Source: Candidatus Polarisedimenticolia bacterium
GTDB taxonomy: Bacteria > Acidobacteriota > Polarisedimenticolia > JACPZX01 > DASXTC01
Length of the DNA: 64,000 nt
Assembly: GCA_050747525.1 (NCBI GenBank)
Contig: JBOGOC010000110.1
Coordinates: 17,303 to 81,302, forward strand
Direction: 5' to 3'
Positions 18,442-55,617 of this stretch are shown here, in pieces. Position 1 is the first letter of the stretch; every line of letters begins with the position of its first letter. The position numbers and the translations under genes were made by a program. The notes under the pieces are model-generated. The model ran no database searches, was not told the origin of the DNA, and worked only from the letters and a program-made list of their open reading frames with translations.

Positions 18442-18543
18442 CGGCACGCATCTCCTCAATGCAGGACGCGCTTGAAGAGCGCGGCTTAAGGAGTTCGGTC
18501 TATTGGACGAGGAGCACACGAGATTCTGGCGATAGGTGATGCG

Positions 18544-18685
18544 CTGTGACGGTTCTGTGACGGAACGCCCGCCTAAGCCACCCAACTCCGGCCTAAACCG
18601 CCTCACCTAAGTCGTTGCTCTACTTGACCGGCTCGTCTGGCGTGGTGTCCGGCTTCGCGTTCGATTCCCACACGCTTCCGCCAGG
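18544..18685 (+). repeat. Dispersed ~160-bp repeat element, copy A
   Basis: ctgtgacggttctgtgacggaacgcc...cccaactccggcctaaac...cctaagtcgttgctctacttgaccggctcgtctggcgtggtgtccgg...cgttcgattcccacacgcttccgccagg shares 85-90% identity with the copies at 21340, 28537 and 46386. Confidence 0.75.
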
Positions 18686-18869
18686 ATCGCCCGTCGTAGG
18701 AACAGGGTGTTTCGTATGCTGGTCATGCGGGGAATCTGGGCGGGCCGGACGTCAACGGCGGCGCGCCCGAGCGAAGATCGTGTGACCGATCGGCAGCCGG
18801 CCCAGTAGCGTGTCGTCAGCGCCGGAAGCGGACCCTGTTCACGGAGCCGGGACCCCCTGGCGGCCGCCG

Positions 18870-21191: not shown

Positions 21192-21339
21192 GTCGCCGAG
21201 ACTCCTCGGTCAGTGATTCTACGACACGGGTCGCATGGCGCCGGCCGCGGTCTCTTGACGTGCCCGTCAGGAAGGAGGCTCCACCATGTCCACCATGGGC
21301 AGGCGACCAACGAGGTGAACTTCATGATGCAGAAGTTCA

Positions 21340-21500
21340 CTGTGCCGGTTCTGTGACGGAACTCCAGCCGAACCCACCCAACTCCAGCCTAAACGACCGG
21401 GCCTAAGTCGTTGCTCTACTTGATCGGCTCGTCTGGCAGGATGTCCGGGATCGCCTTCGATTCCCACACGCTTCCGCCAGGGCTCCCTGCAGCATCAGGC
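21340..21500 (+). repeat. Dispersed ~160-bp repeat element, copy B
   Basis: ctgtgccggttctgtgacggaactccagccgaacccacccaactccagcctaaac...ttcgattcccacacgcttccgccagggctccctgcagcatcaggc. It is preceded by the hairpin gtgaacttcatgatgcagaagttcac. It is in direct orientation with copies A and C. Confidence 0.75.
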
Positions 21501-21614: not shown

Positions 21615-24041
21615 CTACCGCAACGACCAAACTTCGATGGCGCCCCCGGAGACGTCTATCATGGGGCCGGTCGTGGACCCTGGGGGTGGCACAGAAATAT
21701 CGATTCTGCCAATCGTTGCAGTGCTTCCATCGGAGTAGCGCACTCTGAACTCGTAGCTCACTTCCTTCAGCAGCTCGTGCCCGCGCCACGTCGCTCGTGG
21801 ATAGCTCTCCGCGCTGGCTGTGAGCACGATCGTGGCACCTTCATTGCTCGCGAGATCCCGGAGCTCGCGCAGGCGTGCTTCGGCTGTGCGGCTTTGGAAA
21901 ACCTGGTTCACTTCACGGGGGGCATACATGATTCCTTCACGAGCCTCGTCACCGAAACCAGGGCCCCAGAGGTGTGCTCTCTCGTAGTCGGGAAGTCCGA
22001 TTTCCCGGGAGGTTGGCAGATCCACGTTGAAGTTCGGTACTCGGGGATCGCGCCGATCCCCTAGAGAAGGCCCCAGTTCTCCTTCGATTCTGAATTTGAT
22101 GGTCCCATCCGGATCCCGATGGGCCCAGATCTCCTTGATGAGACCTGTTCCGGCAGTATCCCCTGATAGGGCCACATTCGTGCTGCGTAGCCTGGGCCCT
22201 CTCCCGGAGGCTGCTGGATCGGGCGAGGCCTGTTCTCGACCGGAGGCAGCCCGCTGGCGCCGTGCCTCGGATCTGCCCCGTGGTGGTCGCTGCGTGGGCT
22301 CGCGCTCGCTCCGCCTTCCGGAGACCATCGTGTCGGCAGCTCTCGCTGACGGACCGTGCGTCGACGGATCCACCGCACCCGCGATCGGGCGCGCTTGCCG
22401 CGTCTCGGCTGCGCCTGACGCCGGGCGGTCGGTGTTCCCCTGGCTTGCTGGACGACGTGGTCGTCGCTCCCGGGAGCCGGCAGTCATCGGGGATTCCTGC
22501 CTCTCCGCCGTGCGCGACCCGGTGGAGGGCAAAGCCTCGGAAGGTGCCGCTGGCCGAGCCCCCAGCCTCGGCTCGTCCCCGACGCCAGCGGGGCGCTGGA
22601 GTCGCGCCTCCCCGGTGCCGGGAATGGGCCGATCGACCGCCCGCTCTGCCGTACGCAGGCCCTGAAGGCTCGGTCGCGGGGTTCGGCCCCTCGCTGCTCG
22701 CAGAAGAACGCGCTGAGTGAATTCAGTGCGCAGGAATCTGCGGGCGACGGGTCCCAGCATCGCGGGGAGAAGTATCGATGCCGCCAGAAGACCGACATCG
22801 GCGGTGATGTCCACCATCTCGCCGCTCGCGGGCCCCTCCGCGACACGAAGACCCTCATCGACAAGCGCGGTGCGATTCATGAGATTCCGTTGCGTCTCCG
22901 CGGACGCTGCGAATCCATACTCGACTCCGGTCTGAATCCCCAGCATCACGGCCCCGACCACTCCCGCCACGAGAGGCGATGCGAGCCCTCCTGAGACAGC
23001 CGTGACGACGAGCCCGGCTGCAAGCACCAGCACCCTGACATTCTCCAGAGCCCCCCATCTCTCTGTGAGTTCCGGGAAAAGCTCCTCAGCGAGCTCCTTC
23101 AGCGGTTCGGACTCCGCGAAGGCCGCTCCTACGTCATTTCGGAACGTAACGTCCGCCAACCTCAGCACGGGGCGCAGGTTCTCCCAGTTCTCCTGGCCTC
23201 TCAGAATCTCGTCGAGTCTCCCCCGGAAAGCAGCCACGCCTGCTCGCAGGAACACCACGATTTCATTGACGAGGCTACGGAGGTACCGGTTCCTCAGCTC
23301 GGTCGGGGCTCTCAAGACATCGTAGAGCGCCTGAGGGGTTGCGAATCTTCGGACCAGGACCAGGATTGGATGGCCCCCGAGCTCCTCGTCGAGGAGCAGG
23401 GAACGCAACTCGAAGTCATTGTTGGTCTTGACGAGGGCCACGCGTGCCAGGATGAAGTCCTGGTCCCGAGACTCTCGTGGCGACTCTCCCCAGCGGTACC
23501 AGATGAGATGGCGGACAGGGGGTTGAGCCGGCCCATAGGCCTGGGTCCCTGCATCTCGTTCGGGCGGACCGCCAGGCGGCAGCGCTGGGGTGGGTGGCAA
23601 CGCCGGCGGAGGCAACGCCGATTCCGGCACTGCGTACGGCGCGCTCGAGGTGAACACCAGCCAGCTCGCAAGGCAGCGCGCAAGGCTCCCCAGCTCCTGT
23701 TCGGCGGGCGGAGTGGCCTCACCCTCTCTTCGCCGTCCGCGGTAGCGCCAGTTGATGTGGCCCCAGAGCGAGGTCATCAAGCGAAGCTGAAACTCGCCCA
23801 TCTCGACAGCCGACGCTTGAAGCCATGCCTTGAATAGGGCGCGGTCCTCTTCGTGCCGAGGGCTTAGAAACGCCAGTCCCCCTGGCCCCGCGTCAGGGTA
23901 TGTCCGCCGAAACTGATCGAAGGCCCTCGGGATCGTACCGTGAGGATCCGAGGACACACCGCCTCGCGCCCTCCACAAGAGACGATAGGAACGGTCAGCG
24001 TGGTGTAGCCTCCGCAGGACTTCTCTGGGCTCGTCTGACAT
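21615..24041 (-). CDS. Hypothetical 808-aa protein: N-terminal domain, two TM helices, a disordered R/P-rich linker and a C-terminal ~190-aa toxin-like domain
   Basis: Long ORF with coding-like composition. TM segments VLVLAAGLVVTAVSGGLASPLVAGVVGAVMLGI and LLAASILLPAMLG. Low-complexity linker RQESPMTAGSRERRPRRPASQGNTDRP... C-terminal block LPDYERAHLWGPGFGDEAREGIMYAPREVNQVF...IVLTASAESYPRATWRGHELLKEVSYEFRV. No confident family assignment. Confidence 0.55.
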   Translation of the reverse strand: MSDEPREVLRRLHHADRSYRLLWRARGGVSSDPHGTIPRAFDQFRRTYPDAGPGGLAFLSPRHEEDRALFKAWLQASAVEMGEFQLRLMTSLWGHINWRYRGRRREGEATPPAEQELGSLARCLASWLVFTSSAPYAVPESALPPPALPPTPALPPGGPPERDAGTQAYGPAQPPVRHLIWYRWGESPRESRDQDFILARVALVKTNNDFELRSLLLDEELGGHPILVLVRRFATPQALYDVLRAPTELRNRYLRSLVNEIVVFLRAGVAAFRGRLDEILRGQENWENLRPVLRLADVTFRNDVGAAFAESEPLKELAEELFPELTERWGALENVRVLVLAAGLVVTAVSGGLASPLVAGVVGAVMLGIQTGVEYGFAASAETQRNLMNRTALVDEGLRVAEGPASGEMVDITADVGLLAASILLPAMLGPVARRFLRTEFTQRVLLRAARGRTPRPSLQGLRTAERAVDRPIPGTGEARLQRPAGVGDEPRLGARPAAPSEALPSTGSRTAERQESPMTAGSRERRPRRPASQGNTDRPASGAAETRQARPIAGAVDPSTHGPSARAADTMVSGRRSEREPTQRPPRGRSEARRQRAASGREQASPDPAASGRGPRLRSTNVALSGDTAGTGLIKEIWAHRDPDGTIKFRIEGELGPSLGDRRDPRVPNFNVDLPTSREIGLPDYERAHLWGPGFGDEAREGIMYAPREVNQVFQSRTAEARLRELRDLASNEGATIVLTASAESYPRATWRGHELLKEVSYEFRVRYSDGSTATIGRIDISVPPPGSTTGPMIDVSGGAIEVWSLR

Positions 24042-28200: not shown

Positions 28201-28536
28201 GTGCGGCTGGCCGTGGTCTCGCGTCTCGCGTGGATCCTCCGCAAGCGGAGGGCGTTCGTGGAGCAGGCTCGCCAGTCGCAACGAGAGACAGTCACGGGCG
28301 AGAGTCAATACTTCCAGGGGCGCCGTTACCTGCCCTACGTGATTGAAGTGGCCAAATCACCTTCCGTCCGTCTGGCCGGCCACAACACGATGGAACTGCG
28401 GGTTCGCCCGGGCAGCGACCGACAGGCCCGCGAGGCCGTCCTTCAGGGATGGTATCGACGTGGCCTGCGCGAGCAGGCAACGACGCTTCTTGCCAAGTGG
28501 GGGCCGAAGATCGGCGTGACTGTTTCTGAGGTGGGA
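28201..28536 (+). pseudogene. Truncated DUF45/YgjP-like (WLM-type metal-dependent hydrolase) gene fragment, interrupted by repeat copy C
   Basis: Translation ...RRYLPYVIEVAKSPSVRLAGHNTMELRVRPGSDRQAREAVLQGWYRRGLREQATTLLAKWGPKIGVTVSEV matches the YgjP family middle region (..WYRRqA....v..wa.rlGl....vrvr). The expected RWGSC/HExxH part is replaced by the repeat sequence beginning ctgtgccggttctgtga at 28537. The N-terminus overlaps the upstream minus-strand gene. Confidence 0.45.
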
Positions 28537-28697
28537 CTGTGCCGGTTCTGTGATGGAACACCAGCCGAACCCACCCCACTCCAGCCCAAATTTCCTCGCC
28601 TAAGTCGTTGCTCTATTTGACCGACTCGTCTGGCGTGGTGTCCGGAATCGCGTTCGATTCCCACACGCTTCCGCCAGGGCTCCCTGCAGCATCAGGC
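28537..28697 (+). repeat. Dispersed ~160-bp repeat element, copy C, followed by a second partial start motif (ctgtgccggttctg) at ~28722
   Basis: ctgtgccggttctgtgatggaacaccagccgaacccaccccactccagcccaaat...cctaagtcgttgctctatttgaccgactcgtctggcgtggtgtccggaatcgcgttcgattcccacacgcttccgccagggctccctgcagcatcaggc. Confidence 0.75.
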
Positions 28698-33137: not shown

Positions 33138-36100
33138 TCACCGCCAGTCGCCGCTGGCGACGAACGCTCCCCAGTAGAACGGATGGGTGCTGAGTCCTGC
33201 CGCCCGGCGGTCCTTCAGGACGCGCAGCCCCGCCTCGCGGACGGCGGCGGTGGTCGATCGCCGGCGCATCAACCGCGCCTCGTAGAGCGCCCGCATCCAC
33301 GTCCGGGTCGGCTCATCGCCGACCGGCCAGAGGCTCATGATCAACGACGCCGCGCCGGCGACCTGAAAGGCCCGCTGCAACCCCAGGACTCCCTCGCCCG
33401 CCTGGATCGTGCCCGTCCCGGTGCTGCAAGCGGACAGCACGACCCACTCGACCCCCGCCAGATCGAGGGTGGCTATCTCTTCGGCCGTCAGGATGCTCTC
33501 CTCTCCGCCCTCCGAGGACACCCTGTTGGCGCCCGCGAAGGCGAGGCCGGACAGGAGCATGGGACTCTCCGCTCCCGCGGAAACCGCCGGCGGTGCGACG
33601 TCTCCGGACACCACCAGAGCGCCGACCCCGCGCGTGCCGATCCCGGCCGATGGGCAGTCGCTCCCCAGCACGAACGCGTGCGTCGCGAGATGCAGAACCT
33701 TGCGCCCCGGCCCCTGACGGCGCACGACCTCTTCCGTCGCCTCCGCGCGGGTCGCAAGGACGACCACCGCGGCGTCCGGACTCTTCGCCTTGCTCCTCGT
33801 CCAGAGCCCCGCGATCTCCTGCACCTCCTGCGCCGAGGCGGGCAGCCGCTCGAACTCCAGCGCCCGGAACCCGCGGCAGCCCGGGACAGGTCCCCGGTAC
33901 ACCTCCATGCCTGGCGGCGCTTCCGCTGCGGACGGCGGCCTGGCAGCGGCGGTGACGAGCGCCGGCGCCTCGTCGAATGCCGGGTCACCAACGGCGAGCA
34001 GCCCGCTGCCGGTCGCCGTGATCGAAGGACGCAGCAGGTCCTTCTCGGTGGAGAGGCGGTGCATCATCGGCCCCTTCTCGATGAGCCACCCCGATCCGTC
34101 ATCGGGCAGTGCTTCCAGGTTGACCAGATGCAGCGAGCCGTCGGGGACGACGAAGACCGTCCCGACGCCGGCCACATGCGCCGCCACCGGATCCCACACC
34201 GCCTTGCGGAGGGCCAGACCCGAGACCCGGGCTCGCTCCACGGCCGCGGCGTCCGCGGGTGCCAGCCGCACCCCGTTCGACCACTCCGCTACGAGCGCGT
34301 CGATGGCTGCGGCGGATGCCAGGGGAACGACGCGGGCAACACCGCCGGTCCGCGCCAGCACGAATGCCAGATACCGCCGATCCACAGGGGCCTCGATGTC
34401 GGGTCGCTCGCCTGCGTGCTCGTAGAGGGCGTATGCGATCAGCGCAGCGCCACGGGGCAGCGCGCCCGCCACCTGCTCGAATCCGGCAAGGGCCTGCTGC
34501 CGCCCCGTCCGGAATCGGGCGCTGCGCTCCGCCAGTGCGCCTTCCGCCCGCTCCACGTCCCGGCGGGCGTTCATGAGGCGGTCCGGCTGCTGGGGGCTTG
34601 TGGAGTCCCAGATTTCCTGGAGAAAAAGGTTGGACATCCGGTGCCTCGCCCGATCGAGCTCCTGCTTGAGGTCGAGGACGCCGGGATCGGCGCTGGCCAC
34701 TGTGGTGCCGTGGCGCTGCGCCATCTCGTCGAGCACCAGCCCGCGCGAGCGCACCAGGGCGTCCCAGGCGGGCTGCACGATGCCCGGCTCCCGGCTCGTG
34801 GCGGCAACCGACAGGATCAGCGACAACCCGTTCGGCCTGGTCTCCGCGTAGCGGAGCGCCTGCCGCTCGGGCAGCGTCCGGTAGGTCGTGCGCAGGTGCT
34901 CGCGTCCGATCGCTTCGGCGGCCAGGGCCCTGTCCATCGCCTCTGGTCCCCGCTTCATGCTCCATAGCACCTGCCCCTGGTCCAGGAGAGTCTGGGCGAC
35001 CAGATGGTGCTGCTCCCCGAGCGCCTTCCTGCGCAGGGCCAGCGCCCGCTCCACCAGGGCGGCCGCCCGATCGAGATCGCCGAGCTGCTGATGGATGGCC
35101 GCCAGGTCGACGAGGGATGTGGCGATCTCGGGATGGTCGGCGCCAAGAGCTTTCTCCTGGATTGCCAGGGCGCGCTCACATAGGGAGCGCGCCTGCGCGA
35201 GGTCTCCGGAACGGAATCGTACCGTGGCCTGGCCGATGAGGATCGAGGCGACCGCGGGATGGTCCGCGCCGTGCGCCTGCTCACGCAGGGCGAGCGCGCG
35301 CGCGAAGAGCGCGTCGGCATCGTCCGGCTTGTCCAGCCTGGACTTCACCAGGGCAAGGTTCTGGAGCATCTGGGCCGCGCCTCGATGGTCCGGGCCGAAC
35401 CATTTCTCATGGAGGGCGAGGGCGCGCGTCATGAGGGTCTCCGCCTCCGCGTCGTCTCCCTCGTCATGAAGGATGTTGGCGAGGCTCAGCAGCGAACCGG
35501 CCACGTCGACGTGGTCGGGGCCGAGCACCTTCTCGACGACGGCCAGCTCGCGTTCCCTCAGCGATCGCGCCGTGACGAAGTCGCCGCGGGCGCGGGCGAG
35601 CGTGGCCATCGAGCCCAGCGTGTTCGCCGTGTCGCGGTGGTCCAGACCGAGGGCCTTCTCCTGGATCGAGAGGGCCCTCGCATAGAGCGACTCGGCGGCC
35701 TCGTAGTCGGCCAGTCTCCGGTGGACGTTCCCCAGGAATCCCAGAGTCTGCGCGAGCTGCGGGTGGGCCGGCCCCAGCTTCGCCTCCTCGATCGCGAGGG
35801 CCCGCTCGCCGAGCCGAAGCGCCTCCTCCATCTCGTGGGCGTCACGGTGGATGCGAGCCAGGTTGTACAGGACGATGGAGAGGGAAGCATGCTCCTTCCC
35901 GAAGTACTTTTCACGGATGGCCAGCGCCCGCTCGTACAGCCCTCTGGCTTCCTGAGGCTCTCCCATCGTCATCTTGAGGCCGGCGATGTTCACCAGGGTC
36001 GAGGCGACGTCCGGGTGGTCCGGCCCGTGGGCCTTCTCACGGATCGCCAGCGACCGGCGGAAGCATGCCTCCGCCGTGGCATGGTCTCCCATCCTCAGGC

Positions 36101-36602
36101 ACACGCCACCGAGGTTGTTGAGCTGAAGGGCCACCCAGGGGTCGTCGACACCCAGCGACTTCTCCGCGACGCTCACCGAGCGCTCGTAGATGGTCCGCGC
36201 ATCGGCGTAGCGCGAGTTCATGTTGTGGATGTTGCCCAGGTTGGTCAGGCTGAGGATCAGATCGCGGTGCACCGGCCCGAGCTTCTCTTCCTTGATCCGG
36301 ACGGCCCGTTCGGCCAGCGACAGGAGCTCCGGATCCTTGTATCGGCCGGCGCGCCACGCCGCCTCGACGATCCTGTCGATGATGGTGCCGATCGCCGGCC
36401 CGTCGGAAGGACGCTCGCGTTCGAGGGTGGCCAGGTAGAGCCGGCCCTTCTCTTCGGCTTCCTTGAGCTTGCCGGCGTCGATGAGCGACTGGAGCTCGCG
36501 GGCGGGGTCGGGAGGGGCGACCTGCGGCTCCGCGCCGACCGCCGCCGTGGCGGCGACCAGCAGCAAGGGAAGGCCCCGTGCGCGGAAGGCAAGAGAGCGC
36601 AT
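33138..36602 (-). CDS. Secreted TPR-repeat protein with a C-terminal CHAT (caspase-like) domain
   Basis: 1154 aa. Signal peptide MRSLAFRARGLPLLLVAATAAVGA. More than 12 TPR units (LxxLGxxxxxxGxYxxAxxxxxRALAI). C-terminal CHAT signature VLHLATHAF...VVLSACSTGTG (His/Cys dyad). Confidence 0.8.
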   Translation of the reverse strand: MRSLAFRARGLPLLLVAATAAVGAEPQVAPPDPARELQSLIDAGKLKEAEEKGRLYLATLERERPSDGPAIGTIIDRIVEAAWRAGRYKDPELLSLAERAVRIKEEKLGPVHRDLILSLTNLGNIHNMNSRYADARTIYERSVSVAEKSLGVDDPWVALQLNNLGGVCLRMGDHATAEACFRRSLAIREKAHGPDHPDVASTLVNIAGLKMTMGEPQEARGLYERALAIREKYFGKEHASLSIVLYNLARIHRDAHEMEEALRLGERALAIEEAKLGPAHPQLAQTLGFLGNVHRRLADYEAAESLYARALSIQEKALGLDHRDTANTLGSMATLARARGDFVTARSLRERELAVVEKVLGPDHVDVAGSLLSLANILHDEGDDAEAETLMTRALALHEKWFGPDHRGAAQMLQNLALVKSRLDKPDDADALFARALALREQAHGADHPAVASILIGQATVRFRSGDLAQARSLCERALAIQEKALGADHPEIATSLVDLAAIHQQLGDLDRAAALVERALALRRKALGEQHHLVAQTLLDQGQVLWSMKRGPEAMDRALAAEAIGREHLRTTYRTLPERQALRYAETRPNGLSLILSVAATSREPGIVQPAWDALVRSRGLVLDEMAQRHGTTVASADPGVLDLKQELDRARHRMSNLFLQEIWDSTSPQQPDRLMNARRDVERAEGALAERSARFRTGRQQALAGFEQVAGALPRGAALIAYALYEHAGERPDIEAPVDRRYLAFVLARTGGVARVVPLASAAAIDALVAEWSNGVRLAPADAAAVERARVSGLALRKAVWDPVAAHVAGVGTVFVVPDGSLHLVNLEALPDDGSGWLIEKGPMMHRLSTEKDLLRPSITATGSGLLAVGDPAFDEAPALVTAAARPPSAAEAPPGMEVYRGPVPGCRGFRALEFERLPASAQEVQEIAGLWTRSKAKSPDAAVVVLATRAEATEEVVRRQGPGRKVLHLATHAFVLGSDCPSAGIGTRGVGALVVSGDVAPPAVSAGAESPMLLSGLAFAGANRVSSEGGEESILTAEEIATLDLAGVEWVVLSACSTGTGTIQAGEGVLGLQRAFQVAGAASLIMSLWPVGDEPTRTWMRALYEARLMRRRSTTAAVREAGLRVLKDRRAAGLSTHPFYWGAFVASGDWR

Positions 36603-36776
36603 GGACGTACTCCTTGGCAGGAAGCGGGGCGACTATATCACGGTCCTGTTCGTTCCACGACAATCCGGTGTTCTTCCTTGCGGAGACAGGGAGCTCTTTT
36701 TTCTTCTGATGAGCGGCAAGGACGCGTATGATGGCGATGAAGCCGTCTGGGGTTCGGCTGAGAGTCAGGACCAGGC

Positions 36777-37403
36777 ATGCTGGAAGACCCTACCGGCCGT
36801 GGGTCACGCGGACCGGTCGATTCGTCTATATCGCCGCTCGAATCGTCGGCAGAGCTGCTGCGCCGCGCCCGGGATGGCGACTCCCAGGCTCTCAACAGCC
36901 TTTGCGAACGGATCATCCCCCCGCTGAAACGATGGGCGAGGCATCGGCTCCCTTCGTGGGCGCGCGACCTGGTCGACACCGACGACCTGGTGCAGGAAGC
37001 GGTGCTGGGTACCATCCACCAGATCGAGAACTTCGAGCCCCATCACCAGGGGGCGATCCACGCCTACCTGCGCCAGGCGCTCCAGAGCCGGATGCTCAAC
37101 GAACTGCGGCGTGCCCGCCGTCATCCTCATTCCGACGCCATCGAAGGGGACGGTCAGTTGGATCCCTCCCCCTCACCGCTGGAGGCGGCGATCGGCCACG
37201 AGGCCCTGGCGCGATACGAGTCGGCCCTGCAGCGGCTCAGACCTGACGAGCGCGAGGCGATCGTCGCACGCGTCGAGATGGGGATGGGCTACGCCGAGCT
37301 GGCGCAGGCGATCGGCAAACCGACGCCGGATGCCGCCCGCGTGGCGGTCGGCAGAGCGCTTCTCCGGCTGGCCCAGGAGATGCGGTATGAGCGAACGCGA
37401 TGA
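36777..37403 (+). CDS. ECF-type RNA polymerase sigma factor (sigma-70 regions 2 and 4)
   Basis: 208 aa. Region 2 DLVQEAVLGTIHQIENFEP. Region 4 PDEREAIVARVEMGMGYAELAQAIGKPTPDAARVAVGRALLRL. The stop overlaps the downstream kinase gene start by 17 nt. Confidence 0.8.
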   Translation: MLEDPTGRGSRGPVDSSISPLESSAELLRRARDGDSQALNSLCERIIPPLKRWARHRLPSWARDLVDTDDLVQEAVLGTIHQIENFEPHHQGAIHAYLRQALQSRMLNELRRARRHPHSDAIEGDGQLDPSPSPLEAAIGHEALARYESALQRLRPDEREAIVARVEMGMGYAELAQAIGKPTPDAARVAVGRALLRLAQEMRYERTR

Positions 37404-39075
37404 GATGACGCGGCTGATGCCGCTGGCCACACGCGTCTCCGACGGCGGGGTGGTCGACTGGGCCACCCTCCGATCGAGCGAGACCGACCCTGAGGCGCGC
37501 GCCCTCATACACGAGCTCGAGCTGGTCTCCAGCATCATGGCTGCCCACCCCGCCGCCACGCCCCGGCGTATCTGGGGGCACCTCGAGCTGATCGAAGCGA
37601 TCGGGGAAGGAACCGGAGGGATCGTCTACCGCGCGCGCGACGCGGGGCTCCAGAGCGAGGTGGCCTTGAAGCTGCTCCACCCACCCTTCCGCCCGGACAG
37701 GACCGGCCCGGTCGAGGAGGGACGTCTGCTCGCCCGCGTCCGCCATCCTCATGTCGTGATCGTCCACGGCGCCGACTGCATCGACGGCCTGGCGGGAATC
37801 TGGATGGAGCTCCTGCGGGGCCAGACCCTCGAGGAGGCTCTCTCCCGCAACGGCCCGCTGGGCCACCGCGAGGCGGCTCTGATCGGCGTCGACCTGTGCG
37901 GCGCTCTCGCGGCGATCCATGCGGCGGGCCTGCTGCATCGCGACGTCAAGACCCGCAACGTGATGCGGGAGGAAGGTGGGCGCATCGTCCTGATGGACTT
38001 CAGCTCCGCGCGCGAAGCTCCCGCGGCGGCGGGGCCCCTCGAGGAGAATATCCGCGGGACGCCTCTCTACATGGCTCCCGAGCTCCTCGCCGGCGGGCCC
38101 CCGAGCGTCCAATCCGATCTGTACAGCCTCGGAGTGGTCCTCTACCATCTCGTGACGGGCCGGTACCCCGTCCCGGCGAAGACCCTGCCGGAGCTCAGGC
38201 AGGCCCATGAGGAGCGGCGGGGGATCCCGCTCAGACAGGCACGGCCCGATGTGCCCCAGACGTTCGCCGCGGTCGTGGAGCGGGCGATCGCCGCCGACCG
38301 GGCCCACCGCTTCCCCAGCGTGAGCCATTTCGAGCAGGCGCTTGCGGCGACGCTCGGACAGGACCACAGTCTTGCCATGCCGGAGCCCGCTCGTTCTCCC
38401 CGCGTGGCTCCGTGGATCGCCGCGGCGCTGGCTCTGGTGGCGACGCTCGTCCTGACCTGGCAGGCCGGGTGGCTTCCCGGCTCTTCCACGACGCGGCCCT
38501 ATTCCGTGAGAGCCGCGATGCAGCGGCGCGGCGGCGCCACGCTGCAGCCGCTCACCCCGGGGTCGGCGGTCGCGCCGGGCGATCAGCTCGCCCTCGAGTT
38601 CGAGGCTTCCGTGCCGCTCCACGTGTACGTCATCAACGAGGACGAGCGAGGAGAGTCCTATCTCCTGTTTCCTCTCCCCGGGCTCGAGCCGCAGAACCCT
38701 CTGCCAGCCGGCCGACTCCACCGCCTCCCCGGGACGTCCCGTGGATCGCCGACCTACTGGGGAATCTCCAGCGCCGGGGGACGGGAGCACTTCCTCATCG
38801 TCGCGAGCCGTGAACGCCTGTTCGACCTCGAGAGCGATCTGGAAGCGTTCCCCCGTCCCCGCGCCGGCTCCCCTCTGTCGATGGCCCTCCTTTCCCCATC
38901 GGCCGGCGAGCGCCTCCGCGGCGCGGGGATCCTCGTGGTCGATCCCGACGCTGGCCCGGGACCCGGCTCGCCGGGCTCCCGCCTGAACCGGCTGGCCGCC
39001 TCGCTCGCCGGCGGCCCCGAGACCGCCTCGGGGACCTGGATCCGCCGCATCGAGCTCGACAACCCGGGCCGCTAG
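37387..39075 (+). CDS. Membrane Ser/Thr protein kinase with a C-terminal extracytoplasmic sensor-like domain, cognate to the ECF sigma factor
   Basis: ATG 37387 is in the long open frame. Kinase motifs IGEGTGGIVYRARD, VALKLL, HRDVKTRNVM, DFSSA, PLYMAPE. TM segment VAPWIAAALALVATLVLTW. Its C-terminal ~230 aa are paralogous to the partial ORF at the window start. The ORF track starts at 37111, but that start lies inside the sigma gene. Confidence 0.8.
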   Translation: MSERDEMTRLMPLATRVSDGGVVDWATLRSSETDPEARALIHELELVSSIMAAHPAATPRRIWGHLELIEAIGEGTGGIVYRARDAGLQSEVALKLLHPPFRPDRTGPVEEGRLLARVRHPHVVIVHGADCIDGLAGIWMELLRGQTLEEALSRNGPLGHREAALIGVDLCGALAAIHAAGLLHRDVKTRNVMREEGGRIVLMDFSSAREAPAAAGPLEENIRGTPLYMAPELLAGGPPSVQSDLYSLGVVLYHLVTGRYPVPAKTLPELRQAHEERRGIPLRQARPDVPQTFAAVVERAIAADRAHRFPSVSHFEQALAATLGQDHSLAMPEPARSPRVAPWIAAALALVATLVLTWQAGWLPGSSTTRPYSVRAAMQRRGGATLQPLTPGSAVAPGDQLALEFEASVPLHVYVINEDERGESYLLFPLPGLEPQNPLPAGRLHRLPGTSRGSPTYWGISSAGGREHFLIVASRERLFDLESDLEAFPRPRAGSPLSMALLSPSAGERLRGAGILVVDPDAGPGPGSPGSRLNRLAASLAGGPETASGTWIRRIELDNPGR

Positions 39076-39089
39076 CCCGGGCAGCCGAT

Positions 39090-39140
39090 CCCCTCCCTGT
39101 TCGTCCCGTCCCGCCCCGGTGTTATCAGCGGCGAAGGAAG
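39090..39140 (+). promoter_or_regulatory. Conserved promoter-like motif, copy 3, upstream of the kelch-subtilase gene
   Basis: ccctccctgttcgtcccgtcccgccccggtgttatcagcggcgaaggaagc. TGTTCG -18- TTATCA. It lies directly after the kinase stop and ~75 nt before GTG 39208. Confidence 0.5.
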
Positions 39141-39207
39141 CACGTATCGAAGCAACGCGATCCCTTGCGACGGAATGTGAGGGGCGCCTCTCAGAGAGAG
39201 GTGAGGT

Positions 39208-42200
39208 GTGAGAACGTCGAGAGCGATCACCACGATCCCGGTTCGAGGTTTGCAGAGGCCGCTGCGCGGTGCAGTGGCGCAATGCCTGGCACTCATCGTG
39301 GGCCTTCTGGCATGGTCCGCCACGCCGGCCCAGCCGATCACCCCTCCTGAATGGATCCCGGAACTGACCGGCTGGACAGGCGACGTCAATGCCAACGGCG
39401 TGGCCGACTCCATCGACAACGCGGACCCGAACATCTCGGTGTTCGACGGCATCGTCCTGGATCTCAACGCCGCCCCGTCTCCGACCGATCTCGCCGACTT
39501 CGAGGCGATCGGAAACGTGGCGTACGTCGCGCAACATCTGTCCATCGTGGTGCTCCATGGGGTCCCGCGGTCCTGGATTCCCAATCTCGCTGCGCACCCT
39601 CGCGTTGCGATGGTCGAGCAGCCGGTCATGCAGACGACGCTCGACGTCGGCGCTCGCGCGGTCCGATCCCTTCCCAGCGCCACCTTCTCGCCTCAGACGG
39701 CCGCCGAGATAGGCATCGATGGGACCGGCGTCACCATCGTGATCATGGACACCGGGGTCGACAACGGCGGCGGACCGGGCATCACGCACAGCGCGCTTCC
39801 CGCCGCGCGCAACGCGGCCCTCCCCGAAGGGGGGTTCGATGGATGCGCGGCCCCCCCGGCCTACGGCGATCCCGATGACCTGACGTTTCACGGAACCCAC
39901 GTCGCCGGCATCGCCGTGGGAGGGGCCTACGTCGACGTGGGCTCGGGGCTGACCCTGAAAGGAGTCGCCTCAGGTGCCCACTACGCGGACGTGAAGGTGT
40001 GCTGCGGGCTGTTCTGCCCTGCCGTCGCCATCGCCGCGGGCTTCGACGCCATCCTCGACAAGAAAGTGCCCTGGGACATCCGGGTCGTCAACATGAGCTG
40101 GGGCGGACTCTGCGGCATCACCAACGGCCTCGACGCGTTCAGCATGTTCGCCAACGCGCTCGCCGACGCGGGGATCGTGCCGGTGGCCTCCGCGGGCAAT
40201 TCGGGGTTCGGGGGGCTCTGCTCCCCCTGTGCAGGGGACAAGGTCGTGTGCGTCGCGAGCGACAACGACGTGGGAACCGTCCCCCTGACGGACGATGTGA
40301 TCAGCGCCTTTTCCAGCCGCGGGCCGCGCCCGAGCGACGGCGACGGGGACCCGCTGGACGAGCTGAAGCCCGACCTCGCCGCGCCAGGGAGCCTCATCCT
40401 GGCTCCGGCGAACAACACCGTGGCCGGCTCGATGACCCTCAGCGGCACCTCCATGGCTAGCCCCCACGTGGCGGGCGGCGCCGCGCTGGCGATCCAGGGG
40501 CGGCCCGGGCTGCCGCCGAGCGCGATCAAGACGGTCCTCAAGCAGACCGCGGCGGACATGGCGGACATGGATGGAGGCTCCTTTCCAGGACTGGATCCTC
40601 TCTACGACACGGCGTTCGGCGAGGGGATCCTCAACGCTTTCGCGGCCGCCTCGTGTGCAAGCGATGCGGAATGCCAGGACGGCGACGCCTGCAATGGGGC
40701 CGAGGTCTGCGTGGCGGGTGTCTGCCAGCCGGGCTCCCCGCCCGACTGCGACGACGGATCGATCTGCACGGTCGACTCGTGCAGCCCGCTCTCGGGATGC
40801 CTCAACATTCCAGCGGCCGACGCGGAGATCCCCTCCGGGCTGGACAGGACCTGCAGCACGGCCGACGACAACGTCACGCTGTTCGGCCCCGACGGATTCT
40901 GCAACACGGCCGACGACACGTGCGGAGATGGCGTCGTCGCGGGAGACGTCTGTCCCGGGCACGTGGATCCGGCGCAGGCGGATCACGACGGCGACGCGGT
41001 CGGCGACATGTGCGACCCGACGGCCTGCCTGACCGCTTCTTCAGGCGTGTTCCGCTCCCGTGGCTCGATGACGCAGGCCCGAGAAGGCCATGCCGCCGCC
41101 TTGATGTCCGACGGAAGGGTGCTGGTCGCCGGGGGAGGCTTCACTCCCCCCTCAGAGGTCTACTCGCCGGCGACCCGCTCCTTCTCCGCGACCAGCGCGA
41201 TGTCCGTGGCGCCGAACCGCACCGGCCACACGATGACGCCGCTCACGAACGGCCGCGTCCTGGTGGCGGCGGGCTGGAACCCGTTCGGCGGCGGGTCGCT
41301 GAACTCCGCCCAGATCTACGACCCGCTCACGGGGTTCTTCACGGCAGCCGGCAACCTGGGGACCGCGCGCAACAGCCACACCGCCACCCGCCTCTCTTCG
41401 GGTCAGGTGCTCGTGGCCTCGGGAGCGACCACGATCGGCGGGCGAACCGCCACGGCCGAGCTCTACGAGCCGGCTTCCGGAATCTTCTCTCCGACGGGAA
41501 GCCTGCTCGAGGCACGGGAGGGCCACGTCGCGGCCTTGCTGGCCGACGGACGTGTCCTGGTGGCTTCGGGCCGCGGCGACTCGGGCGTCCTCGCCTCCGC
41601 CGAGATCTTCAACCCCGCCACCGGGACCTGGTCGTTCACCGACTCCATGAACGTCGGCCGCGAGTTTGCCCAGGCCACCGCGCTGGCGGACGGCCGCGTG
41701 CTGGTCACCGGCGGCCGAAGGGCGGACGCCACGATTCTCTCCTCCGCGGAGATCTACGATCCGGCCACGGGGCATTTCTCCCTGGTGGGCCCGATGGCCG
41801 GTGCCCGCATGCATTACACCATGACGATGATCCCGGGAGGCCGCGTGCTCATCGCTGGAGGCGCGTCCGCCCTCGGCGGGGTGCCGACGCCGACCAGCCC
41901 CTCCGCCGAGCTGTTCGACCCCGCCACGGATTCCTTCACCACCGTCGCTTCCATGCTGACTCCGCGGATGCTCCACATCGCCTCGCCGCTGGCGAATGGA
42001 CACGTCCTGATTGCGGGCGGGAACCAGATCCTGTCGTCGTCGGAGCAGTTCGTTCCGGGCGAGCAGGCCGTGGTCTCGGTGCCGGATGGCCTGAGCCTGC
42101 TCATCAACGACTCCACGGCGCAAGTCCCCGTGCTGACGTCGGACCTCACGGGACTGGGGATCGTCTCGGCCGACTTCACCCTCTCGTTCAATCCGTCGGT

Positions 42201-43476
42201 GGTGCAGCCCAGCGGTGTTGTCACCACGGGGCCGGTGTCTGCCGGCTGCTCGATCGGCTTCACTCCCTCGTTCAACTCGGTCTCGGTGTCGATTTCCTGT
42301 CCCGGTCCGATGTCGGGGTCGGGCGATCTCGCCGTCGTGAGCTTCGATTTCGCCGGCGGGTTCAACGAGATCACGCCGCTCCTGCTCACTTCGGCCTCGC
42401 TGTCTCCTGGGCTCTCTCCAGCCTGCTCTGAGAACGGCTCGCTCCAGCTCGTGCAGAACGCCGATCTCACGGGCATGGTCCGCTACTATCGCGACGCGGC
42501 CCTGGGCACGGAGCCCGGCTCGATACCCGTTGCTCTCGTCTCGATCCGGTTGACGGGCACCGGTCCTTCCGTGCCCGCCACCACGTCGACCCTGGCGGCG
42601 GGGACCTACACGCTTGCCGGCAAGCGGCTGGGCGAAACTTACGCCGTGACGCCCGCCAAGACGGCCGACTTCCAGAGCGGGGTGACCAGCTACGACGCGG
42701 CGCTCAACGCGCAGGACGTCGTAGGGCTCATCACCCTGTCCCCCGCCCAGCTCCTGGCCGCGGACGTCTCGGGCAACGGCCGCAACACGGCGTTCGACTC
42801 GGCGCTCATCGCCGAGATGGCCGTCGGGAGCCTGGGGCGATTCCCCGTGGCCACCATGATGACCAGCGACTGGTTCGCTCTGCCCGTTCCTGCCCCGGCG
42901 CTGAACCAGATGACGGTCGCTCCTTCGCCGTCCACGGGAGTCGCCGGAGCCATCGGCTACGCGCCGCTGGTTCAGGACGTCGCGGGACAGGACTTCCTCG
43001 CGGGACTGTTCGGCGACGTGTCGGGAAACTGGCCTTCCGGCGCACCCGGGTTCACCTCGGGCGGCACGGCGAGCCTGCAGGGGCCGTCCACGCCGCCACG
43101 GTTCGTCCTGGGCGACCTGGAGGGAGCGACCGGATCGATCGTACAGGTGCACCTGGCGGCCGAGGGTATCGAGGGGGCGATCGCGGTCGACCTGGACCTG
43201 CGCTTCAAGGAGAGCGTGCTGCGTCCCATCGCCGTGGCGCCCGGGACTGCGGCGGCCGGGTTCACGCTCAACGCCAACCTCGCGACGCCGGGCAGGGCGC
43301 GGATCGGGCTCTTCAGCGCCTCGCCTCTGAAGGCGCCAGGGACCCTGGCCGTGATCTCCTTCGAGATCGTCGGCCGTCCCGGCTCGCAGAGCGTCCTCAA
43401 GCTCAGCGGCCTGGCCGACGAAGGCCGCATTCCGGTGTCCTCATCGACCGCGCACGCCAGGGTGTCCCGCCCATGA
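39208..43476 (+). CDS. Secreted S8 subtilisin-like protease fused to kelch/galactose-oxidase-like beta-propeller repeats and a C-terminal cohesin-like domain
   Basis: GTG 39208 follows GAGGTGAGG. Signal peptide ...AQCLALIVGLLAWSATPAQP. Subtilase motifs DTGVD, HGTHVAGIAVGG, GTSMASPHVAGGAALA. Kelch-like units GRVLVAGG / GRVLIAGG (6 copies). C-terminal domain similar to the product of the next gene. Confidence 0.8.
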   Translation: MRTSRAITTIPVRGLQRPLRGAVAQCLALIVGLLAWSATPAQPITPPEWIPELTGWTGDVNANGVADSIDNADPNISVFDGIVLDLNAAPSPTDLADFEAIGNVAYVAQHLSIVVLHGVPRSWIPNLAAHPRVAMVEQPVMQTTLDVGARAVRSLPSATFSPQTAAEIGIDGTGVTIVIMDTGVDNGGGPGITHSALPAARNAALPEGGFDGCAAPPAYGDPDDLTFHGTHVAGIAVGGAYVDVGSGLTLKGVASGAHYADVKVCCGLFCPAVAIAAGFDAILDKKVPWDIRVVNMSWGGLCGITNGLDAFSMFANALADAGIVPVASAGNSGFGGLCSPCAGDKVVCVASDNDVGTVPLTDDVISAFSSRGPRPSDGDGDPLDELKPDLAAPGSLILAPANNTVAGSMTLSGTSMASPHVAGGAALAIQGRPGLPPSAIKTVLKQTAADMADMDGGSFPGLDPLYDTAFGEGILNAFAAASCASDAECQDGDACNGAEVCVAGVCQPGSPPDCDDGSICTVDSCSPLSGCLNIPAADAEIPSGLDRTCSTADDNVTLFGPDGFCNTADDTCGDGVVAGDVCPGHVDPAQADHDGDAVGDMCDPTACLTASSGVFRSRGSMTQAREGHAAALMSDGRVLVAGGGFTPPSEVYSPATRSFSATSAMSVAPNRTGHTMTPLTNGRVLVAAGWNPFGGGSLNSAQIYDPLTGFFTAAGNLGTARNSHTATRLSSGQVLVASGATTIGGRTATAELYEPASGIFSPTGSLLEAREGHVAALLADGRVLVASGRGDSGVLASAEIFNPATGTWSFTDSMNVGREFAQATALADGRVLVTGGRRADATILSSAEIYDPATGHFSLVGPMAGARMHYTMTMIPGGRVLIAGGASALGGVPTPTSPSAELFDPATDSFTTVASMLTPRMLHIASPLANGHVLIAGGNQILSSSEQFVPGEQAVVSVPDGLSLLINDSTAQVPVLTSDLTGLGIVSADFTLSFNPSVVQPSGVVTTGPVSAGCSIGFTPSFNSVSVSISCPGPMSGSGDLAVVSFDFAGGFNEITPLLLTSASLSPGLSPACSENGSLQLVQNADLTGMVRYYRDAALGTEPGSIPVALVSIRLTGTGPSVPATTSTLAAGTYTLAGKRLGETYAVTPAKTADFQSGVTSYDAALNAQDVVGLITLSPAQLLAADVSGNGRNTAFDSALIAEMAVGSLGRFPVATMMTSDWFALPVPAPALNQMTVAPSPSTGVAGAIGYAPLVQDVAGQDFLAGLFGDVSGNWPSGAPGFTSGGTASLQGPSTPPRFVLGDLEGATGSIVQVHLAAEGIEGAIAVDLDLRFKESVLRPIAVAPGTAAAGFTLNANLATPGRARIGLFSASPLKAPGTLAVISFEIVGRPGSQSVLKLSGLADEGRIPVSSSTAHARVSRP

Positions 43477-43514
43477 CCGGGCCGGTCGTGATCCGTGTCA
43501 TCAGGAGGCTTGCC

Positions 43515-44357
43515 ATGAAGCTCTTCGCTCGACTGAACCGGGACGCCGCCGCGGCACTGATCGGCGGCGCCCTGCTCCTCGCCTCGCAGACGCCCGCCTG
43601 GGCGGCGGCGCTCAGCCTGCCGCCGGACGCCGGCGGCCGAGGCGGCGTGACGGTGAGCGTTCCTCTGCGAGTGGACGACGCGGCGGGGATCCGCTCGGCC
43701 GATGTCCGCGTGGAGTTCTCCCCCGCGATCGCCGAAGCGGTCGCCGTCTCACTCACCCCCCTGACCTCGAGCTTCCAGATCGCCGTGAACCTGAACACAC
43801 CAGGCGTGGTGATCGTCTCGATGTTCGGGACGACGCCTCTCTCGGGCACCGGCGATCTCCTCCGGATCGACTTCCAGGTCGAGGGGGGGCTGGGGCAGTC
43901 CACGTCCCTGGACCTGGTCCTCGGCGAGCTCAACGAAGGGGCCATCGCCTCCACGCTCCAGGATGGGATCTTCACGGTGCTCCCCACCTATCTGCTCTCA
44001 ATGAAGAGCGTCAACTCGGGAGGAGGGGAGGCGGCCTCGGCGTCCTGGCGCGCCGGTGGCTCGATGGGACAGGAGTCGGTCGTGGAGGCCTCGGCGGCCT
44101 TCGGCCACGTGGTGCAGTCGGGCTTCTGGAGCTTCGCCGGGACCGGCGTGGTTCCCGTGGTGCTGTCCGTGGGCGCGACCGTCCTGAGCTGGTCGGGGAA
44201 CGATCCGCCTTACTCCATCTACCGGTCCGGCGACTGCAGTGACGTCGGGTCGTCCCTGCTCACGGTGACTCCTGCCAGCAGCTTCTCCGACCCCGCCGTT
44301 CCTGCTCCGGGGCAGGTCTTCTGCTATCAGGTCGAGCCCGCGCCGCCGGGCATGTGA
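43515..44357 (+). CDS. Secreted cohesin-like domain protein
   Basis: AGGAGG 9 nt before ATG 43515. Signal peptide MKLFARLNRDAAAALIGGALLLASQTPAWAAA. The segment VSVPLRVDDAAGIRSADVRVEFSPAIAEAVAV...LLRIDFQV resembles the C-terminal domain of the upstream subtilase. Confidence 0.6.
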   Translation: MKLFARLNRDAAAALIGGALLLASQTPAWAAALSLPPDAGGRGGVTVSVPLRVDDAAGIRSADVRVEFSPAIAEAVAVSLTPLTSSFQIAVNLNTPGVVIVSMFGTTPLSGTGDLLRIDFQVEGGLGQSTSLDLVLGELNEGAIASTLQDGIFTVLPTYLLSMKSVNSGGGEAASASWRAGGSMGQESVVEASAAFGHVVQSGFWSFAGTGVVPVVLSVGATVLSWSGNDPPYSIYRSGDCSDVGSSLLTVTPASSFSDPAVPAPGQVFCYQVEPAPPGM

Positions 44358-46277: not shown

Positions 46278-46385
46278 AAGGTCTGCGCCGACGTGCCGAA
46301 ACCATCGGTCGCCGGTAGGCCGGGGCGAGTCCCCACAGCGTCACGGGAGGTCCGATCGGGCCGGCCGGCAAGGACAATCGCCACA

Positions 46386-46470
46386 CTGTGCCTGTTCTGT
46401 GGCGGAACGCCCGCCGAACCCACCCAACTCAGGCCTAAACGTTCGCGCCCAAGCCGTTGCACTCTGATTC
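46386..46470 (+). repeat. Dispersed repeat element, copy D (5' portion only, more diverged)
   Basis: ctgtgcctgttctgtggcggaacgcccgccgaacccacccaactcaggcctaaacgttcgcgcccaagccgttgc. Confidence 0.6.
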
Positions 46471-54605: not shown

Positions 54606-54831
54606 CGTCTCCTGTTCGGTTTTGTCTGAAAACGTCGCGACTGTTTACAGGAACGGACCGACCCTGTCAAGCGGATATTACGGCAAGTCCACCATTCACG
54701 CCGCCGGAATCAGTCGTATTCGATCAACAAACGGGTCGCTTTGTGCGAGCTGTTGTCCCTGTCCTCGTGGCTCTTGACGCGGCACCGCGTATGCCTTGAT
54801 GATTGGACCTTGTTCTCATCTGGAGGAGGCA

Positions 54832-55617
54832 ATGACGCGCACAACAGGACGTCGGTTCATGTTACCCGGGCTGGCCGGAATCGCCATGCTGGCCGCTTCA
54901 TCCCAGGCGCTGTTTGCCCAGACCGATCACTTCAAGTGCTATCAGACCCAGGAGCTGTTCGTCGAGCAGGCCAGGGACGCCGAGCTGACGGACGCCTTCG
55001 GGGGCGATCCGGAGGTCCGCATTCACAACGCGGCCTGGTTCTGCAACCCGGTTTCAAAGGCCGTCGGAGAGGAGGCGCCCACCCCCATCACCGAGCCGGC
55101 CAACCATCTGACTCTTTATCCGCTCTCGAACACCAACCCCTCGCCGCTGCATCGCGTCACCATCGACAACCAGTTCGGGACCCGCGAGCTCGTGATCACG
55201 TCGCCGCGGCTGGTGGCGGTGCCCACCCGCAAGGACGACGAGCCCGACCCGCAGGGGATCAGCCATTTCAAATGCCATCAGGCGAGCGGGCGGCCCGTCC
55301 ACGTGAGGGCCACGCTGGCCGACCAGTTCCAGACCGAGTCGGCGAGAATCCTGCAGCCGCGCTATCTTTGCAATCCGGCCACCAAGACGCTGGAGGGAGT
55401 GACCACCGCTCCGGAGCCAGGAGAAGCTTCTCTGACCTGCTACACGATTGCCCCGGGCGGTCCCCCGCCGGTCGACTTCATCGACTTCGACAACCAGATC
55501 GGCGCCCCGGACACCATGAGGCTCGGTCCGTCCAACTTCTTGTGCGTGCCTACCACCGTGGCCAGCGGGGAAGAGGCGGCGACCGATCGCCGTTACCTGC
55601 GGGACCAGCGGAAATGA
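54832..55617 (+). CDS. Secreted protein with three ~85-aa repeats (HFKCYQ-type), immediately upstream of and translationally coupled to the VgrG-like gene
   Basis: GGAGGAGG before ATG 54832. Signal peptide MTRTTGRRFMLPGLAGIAMLAASSQALFAQ. Repeats DHFKCYQTQ / SHFKCHQAS / ASLTCYTIAP. The stop TGA overlaps the next ATG (ATGA). Confidence 0.6.
   Translation: MTRTTGRRFMLPGLAGIAMLAASSQALFAQTDHFKCYQTQELFVEQARDAELTDAFGGDPEVRIHNAAWFCNPVSKAVGEEAPTPITEPANHLTLYPLSNTNPSPLHRVTIDNQFGTRELVITSPRLVAVPTRKDDEPDPQGISHFKCHQASGRPVHVRATLADQFQTESARILQPRYLCNPATKTLEGVTTAPEPGEASLTCYTIAPGGPPPVDFIDFDNQIGAPDTMRLGPSNFLCVPTTVASGEEAATDRRYLRDQRK

Follow-up and report, generated by a model that had tools for sequence, protein, structure and literature searches.

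In a 64,000-nucleotide stretch of DNA from a Candidatus Polarisedimenticolia bacterium (contig JBOGOC010000110.1, positions 17,303 to 81,302; the window, from here on), we have found four copies of a bipartite promoter-like motif, three of them ahead of genes for secreted proteins and one ahead of the gene for an extracytoplasmic function (ECF) sigma factor (36777-37403, + strand). The motif is probably the cognate promoter of this sigma factor. It is best read as a clade-specific, autoregulated promoter of the ECF type and not as a sigma-70 promoter with an extended -10 box, because it is present at the loci of homologous sigma factors, its variants track the sigma phylogeny and its orientation follows the genes. 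An earlier note on this DNA had described three of the copies and proposed that sigma/kinase modules drive the expression of proteases through them. This proposal is now supported by the fourth copy, by the motif at homologous sigma loci and by the co-variation between motif variant and sigma clade, although the several modules that it assumed come down to one, since a tblastn search of the window and of 9.6 kb of left flank found no second sigma gene.

Four copies of a bipartite motif and the sigma-kinase module

The motif is composed of CCTGTTC(A/G)TC, 10 variable nt and CCGGTGTTATC, and exact matches to it are found at 294-322 (copy 1), 9200-9228 (copy 2) and 39098-39126 (copy 3), all of them on the + strand. 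They lie in the sequences 286-335, 9190-9241 and 39090-39140, whose common pattern had been recognised in the earlier note, and the distance of 18 nt from TGTTCR to TTATCC is indeed identical in all copies; the variable spacer given there as 16 nt after the TC had been miscounted and is of 10 nt, while a search of the window with a 13-nt spacer gave zero matches. When up to three mismatches were allowed there were four matches in the window, against 0.01 expected from dinucleotide-preserving shuffles. The fourth copy, TGTTCGTTCCACGACAATCCGGTGTTCTT (36647-36675, +; three mismatches, boxes TGTTCGTT-N10-CCGGTGTTCTT), is placed in the 175-nt gap between the start of a divergent CHAT-TPR gene (36602, - strand) and the ATG of the sigma gene at 36777, about 100 nt upstream of this ATG, and is putatively autoregulatory. 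In a position weight matrix (PWM) scan of both strands of the window only the four copies scored above 20 (21.9, 23.3, 25.5 and 23.3 for copies 1 to 4, respectively), with the runner-up at 15.5 and shuffled windows reaching at most 15. The putative -35 box is TGTTCA in copy 1 (294-299) and TGTTCG in copies 2 (9200-9205), 3 (39098-39103) and 4 (36647-36652), and the putative -10 core is TGTT in all of them (316-319, 9222-9225, 39120-39123 and 36669-36672). Between TGTTCG and (C/T)GTT there are 16 nt in the four window copies and also in the relatives described below.

Both boxes are essentially invariant and the spacer is variable, copies 1 and 3 being identical at 4 of its 10 positions. Copy 2 resembles the other copies only over about 60 nt, with the two boxes in the middle. 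Past the second box copies 1 and 2 are conserved (ATCCAYCTTCGAAKGGAC), copy 3 less so, and copies 1 and 3 also have ATCGARNYAACGCGATCC in common deeper in the leader. The conservation into the leader that had been reported before therefore holds for copies 1 and 2 and is weaker for copy 3; it is best explained by duplication, and the leaders fold no better than shuffles. We rejected the leaders as structured RNA (z = +0.35, +0.63, -1.13 and -0.46 against shuffles; no Rfam family matched at the gathering score). The start codons lie about 74, 57 and 81 nt beyond the motif end for copies 1, 2 and 3: copy 1 leads to the ATG at 397, with GGAGGAGG just before it, copy 2 to the ATG of a giant S8 subtilase gene at 9286, and copy 3, which is located 23 nt past the stop codon of the kinase gene, to the start of a gene for a subtilase with a kelch propeller (kelch-S8). 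The three target units have signal-peptide-like N-termini and purine-rich ribosome-binding sites. A scan of a collection of genome contigs with CCTGTTCRT-N11-CCGGTGTT returned at least 118 single matches from unrelated taxa, mostly in coding sequence and evidently random, and these loci (L001-L118) were excluded as uninformative.

The sigma factor (208 amino acids) contains the Pfam domains Sigma70_r2, Sigma70_r4_2 and Sigma70_ECF, and among the NCBIfam models only the superfamily model TIGR02937 passes (73.4 bits, cutoff 42.9), while none of the subfamily models accepts the protein at its cutoff; according to Pfam and TIGR02937 it belongs to the ECF (group 4) sigma-70 family. Its homologues number 3847 at E<=1e-10, and the most similar of them has about 62% identity to it. 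The acidic motif of its region 2.2 reads DTDDLVQE, in which D69 and D70 are invariant and T68 is conserved in at least 90% of 30 family members. The kinase gene (37387-39075, +) encodes a membrane Ser/Thr kinase (Pfam Pkinase, 2.8e-36) with an extracytoplasmic DUF4384 domain (6.9e-12), and overlaps the end of the sigma gene by 17 nt, so that the pairing of kinase and ECF sigma factor already proposed for 36777-39075 is borne out by Pfam and by the overlap. The pairing is kept in 58 of 63 relatives with evaluable loci, and the three homologue loci that we inspected all have the sigma-kinase overlap. A Pfam scan of neighbouring genes detected no anti-sigma domain.

According to the mechanism that we propose, the sigma-RNA polymerase would recognise the -35 (C)TGTTCG and the -10 core TGTT, 16 nt apart, and transcription would start a few bases past the -10 core, near 325-329, 9231-9235, 36678-36682 and 39129-39133, giving leaders of about 55-100 nt that contain Shine-Dalgarno sequences. 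The first unit would be the sigma-kinase operon itself, under positive feedback, and the other three would be the operon for a small secreted protein and an HExxH/FG-GAP protein, the giant S8 subtilase gene and the kelch-S8 subtilase gene. The DUF4384 membrane kinase, coupled translationally to the sigma factor, would sense an extracytoplasmic cue and turn the sigma factor on. Promoter activity, control by the kinase or by phosphorylation, the start positions and protease secretion as the output are all what we infer from sequence. Directly after the -10 of copy 4, inside the predicted sigma leader, there is a terminator-like hairpin followed by CTCTTTTTTC (36674-36703, +); its stem is weak (7 pairs, 3 of them G-C), 0.4 such sites are expected by chance, and it could be an attenuator or nothing.

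The motif at homologous sigma loci

Metagenomes scanned with an alignment built from 30 homologues yielded 80 more loci, and the sigma homologues at the 82 metagenomic loci gathered are 50-63% identical. Across 83 loci (452 kb), TGTTC-N17-YGTT matched 40 times, against 1-6 times in shuffles, and the consensus with its flanks in the relatives is cTGTTCGnTT...G(T/G)CGTT(A/G)(T/A). With a PWM, 45 of the 51 matches at 82 loci fell within 330 nt ahead of the sigma start, a zone that makes up 6% of the sequence (binomial p ~1e-48). Matches were present in 35 of the 79 evaluable loci, 23 directed toward the sigma gene and 22 toward the divergent neighbour, with both, back to back, in 10 cases; the six remaining matches come after kinase-proximal genes or are one gene farther away on the divergent side. 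When the PWM was built only from the sites of distant relatives, the window copies ranked 1, 2, 5 and 6 of about 128,000 positions, copy 3 (score 18.4) being the top position of the window.

The variants of the motif follow the sigma clusters. In sigma cluster 3 (21 loci) there are 26 TGTTCG-N16-YGTT and no TGTCCG-N16-YGTT, whereas cluster 2 (42 loci) has one of the former and 18 of the latter, and cluster 1, to which the window, L121 and L124 belong, has TGTTCG with TGTT as the second box. The -10 is CGTT in 35 of the relatives' 38 sites and TGTT in the window. This co-variation is expected if the sigma protein reads the element, and we infer that it is this sigma factor, rather than a paralogue, that reads the motif in the window. 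The closest relatives (L121/L122 and L124; sigma 60-61% identical) present CTGTTCGTTCGCC-N-CGGTGTTTAGAA, with the spacing and the TGTT -10 of the window, in the intergenic region upstream of the sigma gene. The element is directed at the divergent gene in L121, where this gene encodes an S8 peptidase, and in L124, while in L123 GTGTTCGGTTCATGCCGCGGCGTCGTTAAG is directed at the sigma gene.

The genes under copies not directed at the sigma gene encode short soluble kinases, long membrane kinases, Omp85-family and lipase-like secreted proteins, a C11 peptidase, an S8 peptidase and a sigma-like protein. Because these downstream genes are so varied, proteases seem to be one recurrent output of the family and not a universal one. 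Proteases at the relatives include the S8 peptidase of L121, a peptidase C11 in L143 and a CHAT protein in L170; when the window proteases were compared with the neighbours of sigma homologues, CHAT alone was matched, in L170 and L143.

Two further observations concern the arrangement of the motif in the relatives. At seven cluster-3 loci (L126, L131, L132, L135, L138, L142 and L146) the divergent gene under the motif encodes a soluble Ser/Thr kinase of about 300 amino acids, and these modules therefore have two kinases per sigma factor. The start codon of the divergent kinase is usually 35-38 nt from TGTTC (72-73 nt in L138 and L146), and this fixed distance suggests leaderless mRNAs. In L198 two motif copies (1462-1515 and 559-611) face each other with a palindromic second box, CGTTTAAACG, and jointly form a 54-nt inverted repeat right at the sigma start.

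Orientation of the element and alternative explanations

Orientation was judged from Pfam-verified flanking genes, and a gene caller based on the GC content of third codon positions was set aside because it made too many errors with short genes and had missed the sigma gene. In 8 of 8 sites located between co-directional genes (window copies 1-3, L125, L156, L196, L132 and L148) the motif is directed as the genes. In the window, copies 1-3 are found between + strand genes or between a non-coding gap and a + strand gene; in the relatives the sites lie between a nitroreductase gene and a cytochrome c gene or an open reading frame (ORF) (L156, L125), between a methylase gene and a kinase gene (L196) and between a kinase gene and an Omp85 gene (L132, L148). 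We favour the TGTTC to YGTT direction because of these eight sites and of the fixed 35-38-nt start codons in cluster 3, the arrangement of copy 4 and of cluster 2 being compatible with either strand.

The alternative that survives best, although a very unlikely one, is that the same element acts on the opposite strand as (G)ATAACA-N17-CGAACAGG, with AAC in the -35 and CGAAC as the -10, firing leftwards, so that copy 4 would drive the CHAT-TPR gene. The reverse complement does contain AAC with an AAC-to-CG spacing of about 17 nt, and both features are typical of ECF promoters. Moreover, the cluster-2 motif is usually located 32-94 nt from the sigma start and directed away from it, in such a way that its reverse complement would face the sigma gene, the L198 copies share their palindromic box, and copy 4 is just 45 nt from the CHAT start codon. 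However, leftward transcription from copies 1-3 would run antisense into convergent genes or end up in a non-coding gap, and the sole - strand ORF available at copy 2 (8456-9190) has poor coding statistics. The eight co-directional sites, the cluster-3 kinase starts at a constant distance, as for forward leaderless mRNAs, and the forward -10 CGTT, which fits the common CGT core of ECF promoters, also argue for the forward strand. The CHAT-TPR gene is a target only if copy 4 acts on the opposite strand.

It is very improbable that the motif is the binding site of another regulator, for instance of a response regulator on a direct repeat TGTT-N18-TGTT. Both window boxes contain TGTT, 22 bp apart from centre to centre (two helical turns), and the element is placed upstream of the genes that would be regulated. 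Nevertheless, the symmetry of the direct repeat is lost in the relatives, which mostly have CGTT in the second box and TGTTCG or TGTCCG in the first, and the motif follows the presence and the phylogeny of the sigma gene. The kinase is the sole conserved neighbour, no transcription-factor gene being conserved at the sigma loci, and there is no separate sigma-70-type promoter detectable for such a factor to regulate.

A housekeeping sigma-70 promoter, with TGTTCR as the -35 and TGnTATCC as an extended -10, had been the structure originally assigned to the motif, and we regard it as very unlikely. It is true that a TG precedes TTATCC by two bases and that the 18-nt spacing is within the sigma-70 range, but TGTTCR agrees with TTGACA at only 3 of 6 positions and TTATCC resembles TATAAT poorly. 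A scan for the sigma-70 consensus (TTGACA-N16-18-TATAAT, at least 9 of 12) found no sites in 1-500, 8500-9350 and 36550-39250, and what is conserved in the relatives is (C/T)GTT and not the ATCC part, so that the conserved cores, TGTTCG and (C/T)GTT, are those of an ECF-type element. The relatives have in addition a separate and better sigma-70-like element, TTGCGC-N17-TAAGAT, which in L121 (~5930-5965) and L124 (~1530-1565) is closer than the ECF-type motif to the sigma start. Among 6-mers found de novo upstream of the sigma homologues, the upstream regions of L125-L204 included, the top one was TATGAT (16-fold, a sigma-70-like -10), together with CGTTAT, GGTGTT and TTCGGT. The TATGAT enrichment and the sigma-70-like element make an additional housekeeping promoter probable for the sigma genes.

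The least probable explanation is a non-functional remnant, either 3'-flanking sequence scattered by the duplication of kinase genes or a small mobile repeat without promoter activity: copies 1 and 3 do end homologous kinase 3' regions (72% nt identity over 280 nt) and scars of mobile elements (an integrase fragment, transfer RNA (tRNA) genes and a transfer-messenger RNA (tmRNA)-like 3' fragment) are nearby, but copies 2 and 4 are not beside kinase sequence, copy 2 resembles the others only around the boxes, the boxes are better conserved than the adjoining coding sequence while the spacer varies, and the motif recurs at the sigma loci of unrelated metagenomes, where the proteins are no more than 50-60% identical, unlike neutral remnants. 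We also rejected a dispersed repeat or miniature mobile element, as the similarity is only in the two boxes and the copies are placed 57-100 nt upstream of co-directional genes.

Returning to the ECF-type promoter, several points weigh against it. The forward -35 does not contain the AAC typical of ECF promoters, and the reverse complement, ATAAC(G/A)-N16-CGAACA, is also ECF-like. The PWM used for the enrichment was trained on matches from the same loci, although the positional enrichment is independent of this training, and a site above threshold is present in just 35 of the 79 relatives. The scores of the window copies with the relatives-only PWM (12.5-18.4) overlap the shuffle maxima (up to 17.8); this poor separation is explained by the change from C to T in the window -10 (TGTT instead of CGTT). 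Copies 1 and 3, being of shared ancestry, are not independent observations, and the motif census covers the 64-kb window out of the whole genome. Finally, Acidobacteriota contain many paralogous ECF/kinase pairs (PMC3174227), and therefore a paralogue encoded elsewhere in the genome could read these promoters.

Putative target genes, probable duplication and relation to known systems

The unit under copy 1 starts with a gene for a small secreted protein (397-966, +; 189 amino acids, signal-peptide-like N-terminus, no family match), followed by the gene for a secreted protein of 1894 amino acids (966-6650, +) with the Pfam domains PepSY, Big_5, FG-GAP and TSP3. An HExxH motif (HEWGH) can be read off the translation of the latter, but we found no peptidase family match and, for residues 301-745, no match among PDB sequences; as the metalloprotease assignment is based on HExxH and PepSY, this protein is only probably a metalloprotease. 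A possible third gene of the operon (6647-8527, +), whose start overlaps the preceding stop, encodes a 626-amino-acid beta-propeller repeat protein with weak NCBIfam beta-propeller matches. Copy 2 precedes the giant S8 subtilase gene (9286-18441, +; 3051 amino acids), with TSP3 repeats (Pfam Peptidase_S8 7.1e-10, TSP_3 7.5e-16), and copy 3 the gene for an S8 subtilase of 1422 amino acids with a kelch propeller and a cohesin domain (39208-43476, +; Pfam Peptidase_S8 3.9e-33, Kelch, Cohesin). The end of this gene is overlapped by a cohesin-domain gene (43473-44357), which is probably co-transcribed with it. Of the targets described earlier as secreted hydrolases, the two subtilases are confirmed as S8 peptidases by Pfam, the metalloprotease being the probable member of the set. 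On the other side of copy 4, the divergent gene (33138-36602, -) encodes a caspase-like CHAT protein with TPR repeats (Pfam CHAT 4.9e-58, TPR_12).

It had also been noticed that two of the copies follow a kinase gene. This is the case of copy 3, which follows the full kinase gene, whereas copy 1 follows a truncated paralogue (1-280, +) that contains the 3' end with the DUF4384 part only and has 72% nt identity to 38796-39075. A tblastn search of the leftward extension of the window (L119) showed that the fragment corresponds to kinase residues 351-562 (71% identical) and abuts a phage-integrase-family ORF of 200 amino acids (- strand), near tRNA genes. Upstream of copy 2 there is no kinase sequence, and the gap at 8527-9190, about 660 nt long, contains no convincing ORF. 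The similarity between copies 1 and 3 runs from the kinase 3' coding sequence through the promoter into the leader, and it is best explained by a segmental duplication of the kinase 3' end together with promoter and leader, an event that would have wired operon 1 into the regulon.

Traces of mobile elements are found in the same region. The segment L119 7666-9884 (window positions ~-1940 to 280) contains a tRNA-Ala gene, a predicted tRNA-SeC gene, the integrase-family ORF and the truncated kinase fragment. A tmRNA-like 3' fragment (T-arm and acceptor end, ...GGTTCGACTCCCGCCGCCTCCACCA) is located at 8847-8934 (-), about 270 nt upstream of copy 2; its match to Rfam RF00023 (17 bits, E 1e-4) does not reach the gathering score, no gene is called there by ARAGORN, and the fragment looks like an attachment-site scar. 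The tRNA genes, the integrase ORF and the kinase and tmRNA-like fragments suggest that operon 1 (397-8527) is part of an integrated or rearranged segment. Scans of the window itself for tRNA genes at curated thresholds and for Rfam families at the gathering score gave nothing.

Other features of the window are recorded here for completeness. Genes for an Ntox4 toxin-domain protein (21615-24041, -), a VgrG-like protein (Phage_GPD/Phage_base_V; 54741-57158, +) and a GAF-domain sigma-54 activator (57522-59582, +) have no motif upstream in the PWM scan of the window. A second dispersed intergenic repeat, CACTGTGCCGGTTCTGTGACGGAAC...CCTAAGTCGTTGCTCT, has four copies of 80-160 nt with 80-90% identity (18542-18704, 21338-21500, 28535-28697 and 46384-46463, +); since its gene contexts are mixed, some copies lying after convergent genes and others upstream of genes, it is not simply promoter-like. 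In 60979-64000 a single long + strand ORF that continues past the window end is favoured by GC statistics per codon position over two - strand ORFs (61054-62643 and 62731-63942), and an exact-sequence look-up of the second of these found no record.

The general principle of an autoregulated ECF sigma factor with a group-specific promoter is already known and is textbook matter; the regulon described here is of this ordinary kind, though unusually cleanly definable. As in the group-specific promoters described previously (Staron 2009; Casas-Pastor 2021, PMC7826278), the element is bipartite, with -35 and -10 boxes at a fixed spacing, copies are found upstream of the sigma gene and of neighbouring targets, and the motif is conserved within the sigma clade and divergent between clades (PMC7826278). 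The -10 core of the relatives, CGT(T), is also that of many ECF groups. It differs from the usual ECF promoters in its -35, which is TGTTCG or TGTCCG without AAC, and, in the window genome and its nearest relatives, in a -10 that is TGTT and not CGTT. The main texts of the ECF classification give no promoter motif for kinase-linked groups.

Regarding the sigma-kinase pair, the closest parallel is ECF43, in which sigma factors are activated by a co-encoded Hanks-type kinase, as in EcfP/PknT of Vibrio parahaemolyticus and EcfK/PknS of Xanthomonas citri, and in which the acidic DAED of region 2.2 is replaced (STTA/QTTA), phosphorylation restoring the charge (PMC8999054, PMC13147305). As in ECF43, the sigma gene of the window is directly upstream of, and translationally coupled to, that of a membrane Ser/Thr kinase, no anti-sigma gene was found in the neighbourhood, and the output would be a defined set of envelope or secreted functions. 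In contrast to ECF43, the sigma family of the window keeps DTDDLVQE in region 2.2 and the sensor domain of the kinase is DUF4384. Because DTDD is kept, this sigma factor is not ECF43-like, and its activation, if it involves phosphorylation at all, must be different. The acidic motif is likewise present in the kinase-linked groups other than ECF43, which may have another mode of action (PMC8999054).

Subtilase, carboxypeptidase or CHAT proteins are also part of the conserved neighbourhood of ECF54 and other ECF groups, and in ECF54, which is actinobacterial and not kinase-linked, the proteases have been proposed as regulators that degrade the sigma factor (PMC8999054). S8 subtilases and a CHAT-domain protein are similarly near the sigma gene of the window. 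In this case, however, the proteases have signal peptides and huge adhesion-type repeats and are placed downstream of a sigma-type promoter, and for these reasons they look like outputs and not like regulators.

A broader reading, which we put forward only tentatively and consider somewhat doubtful, is that these sigma factors form a very large clade of kinase-coupled, uncharacterised ECF sigmas, mainly from Acidobacteriota, with a kinase control different from that of ECF43 and with sub-clades whose diversified boxes insulate parallel circuits, one of which commands giant proteases. The acidic region 2.2 motif with its near-invariant Thr (DTDD) would point to a kinase control other than charge-restoring phosphorylation, the box variants (TGTTCG against TGTCCG, CGTT against TGTT) would insulate sensor-kinase/sigma circuits within one genome, and the protease arsenal would have been recruited in part by promoter duplication beside a mobile-element scar.

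If the sigma factor is confirmed as the reader of the motif, this work would provide a testable regulon for an uncultured Candidatus Polarisedimenticolia lineage, with a chain from a DUF4384 kinase to an ECF sigma factor and from there to three operons for very large secreted proteases, and it would bear on the degradation of protein polymers by these bacteria in sediments and soils. For a large kinase-linked ECF clade that does not fit ECF43, the sole model that is mechanistically understood, it would also supply a consensus promoter along with naturally occurring variants in specificity, and thus a handle on the kinase control of sigma factors with an acidic motif, as well as a possible source of orthogonal sigma/promoter pairs.

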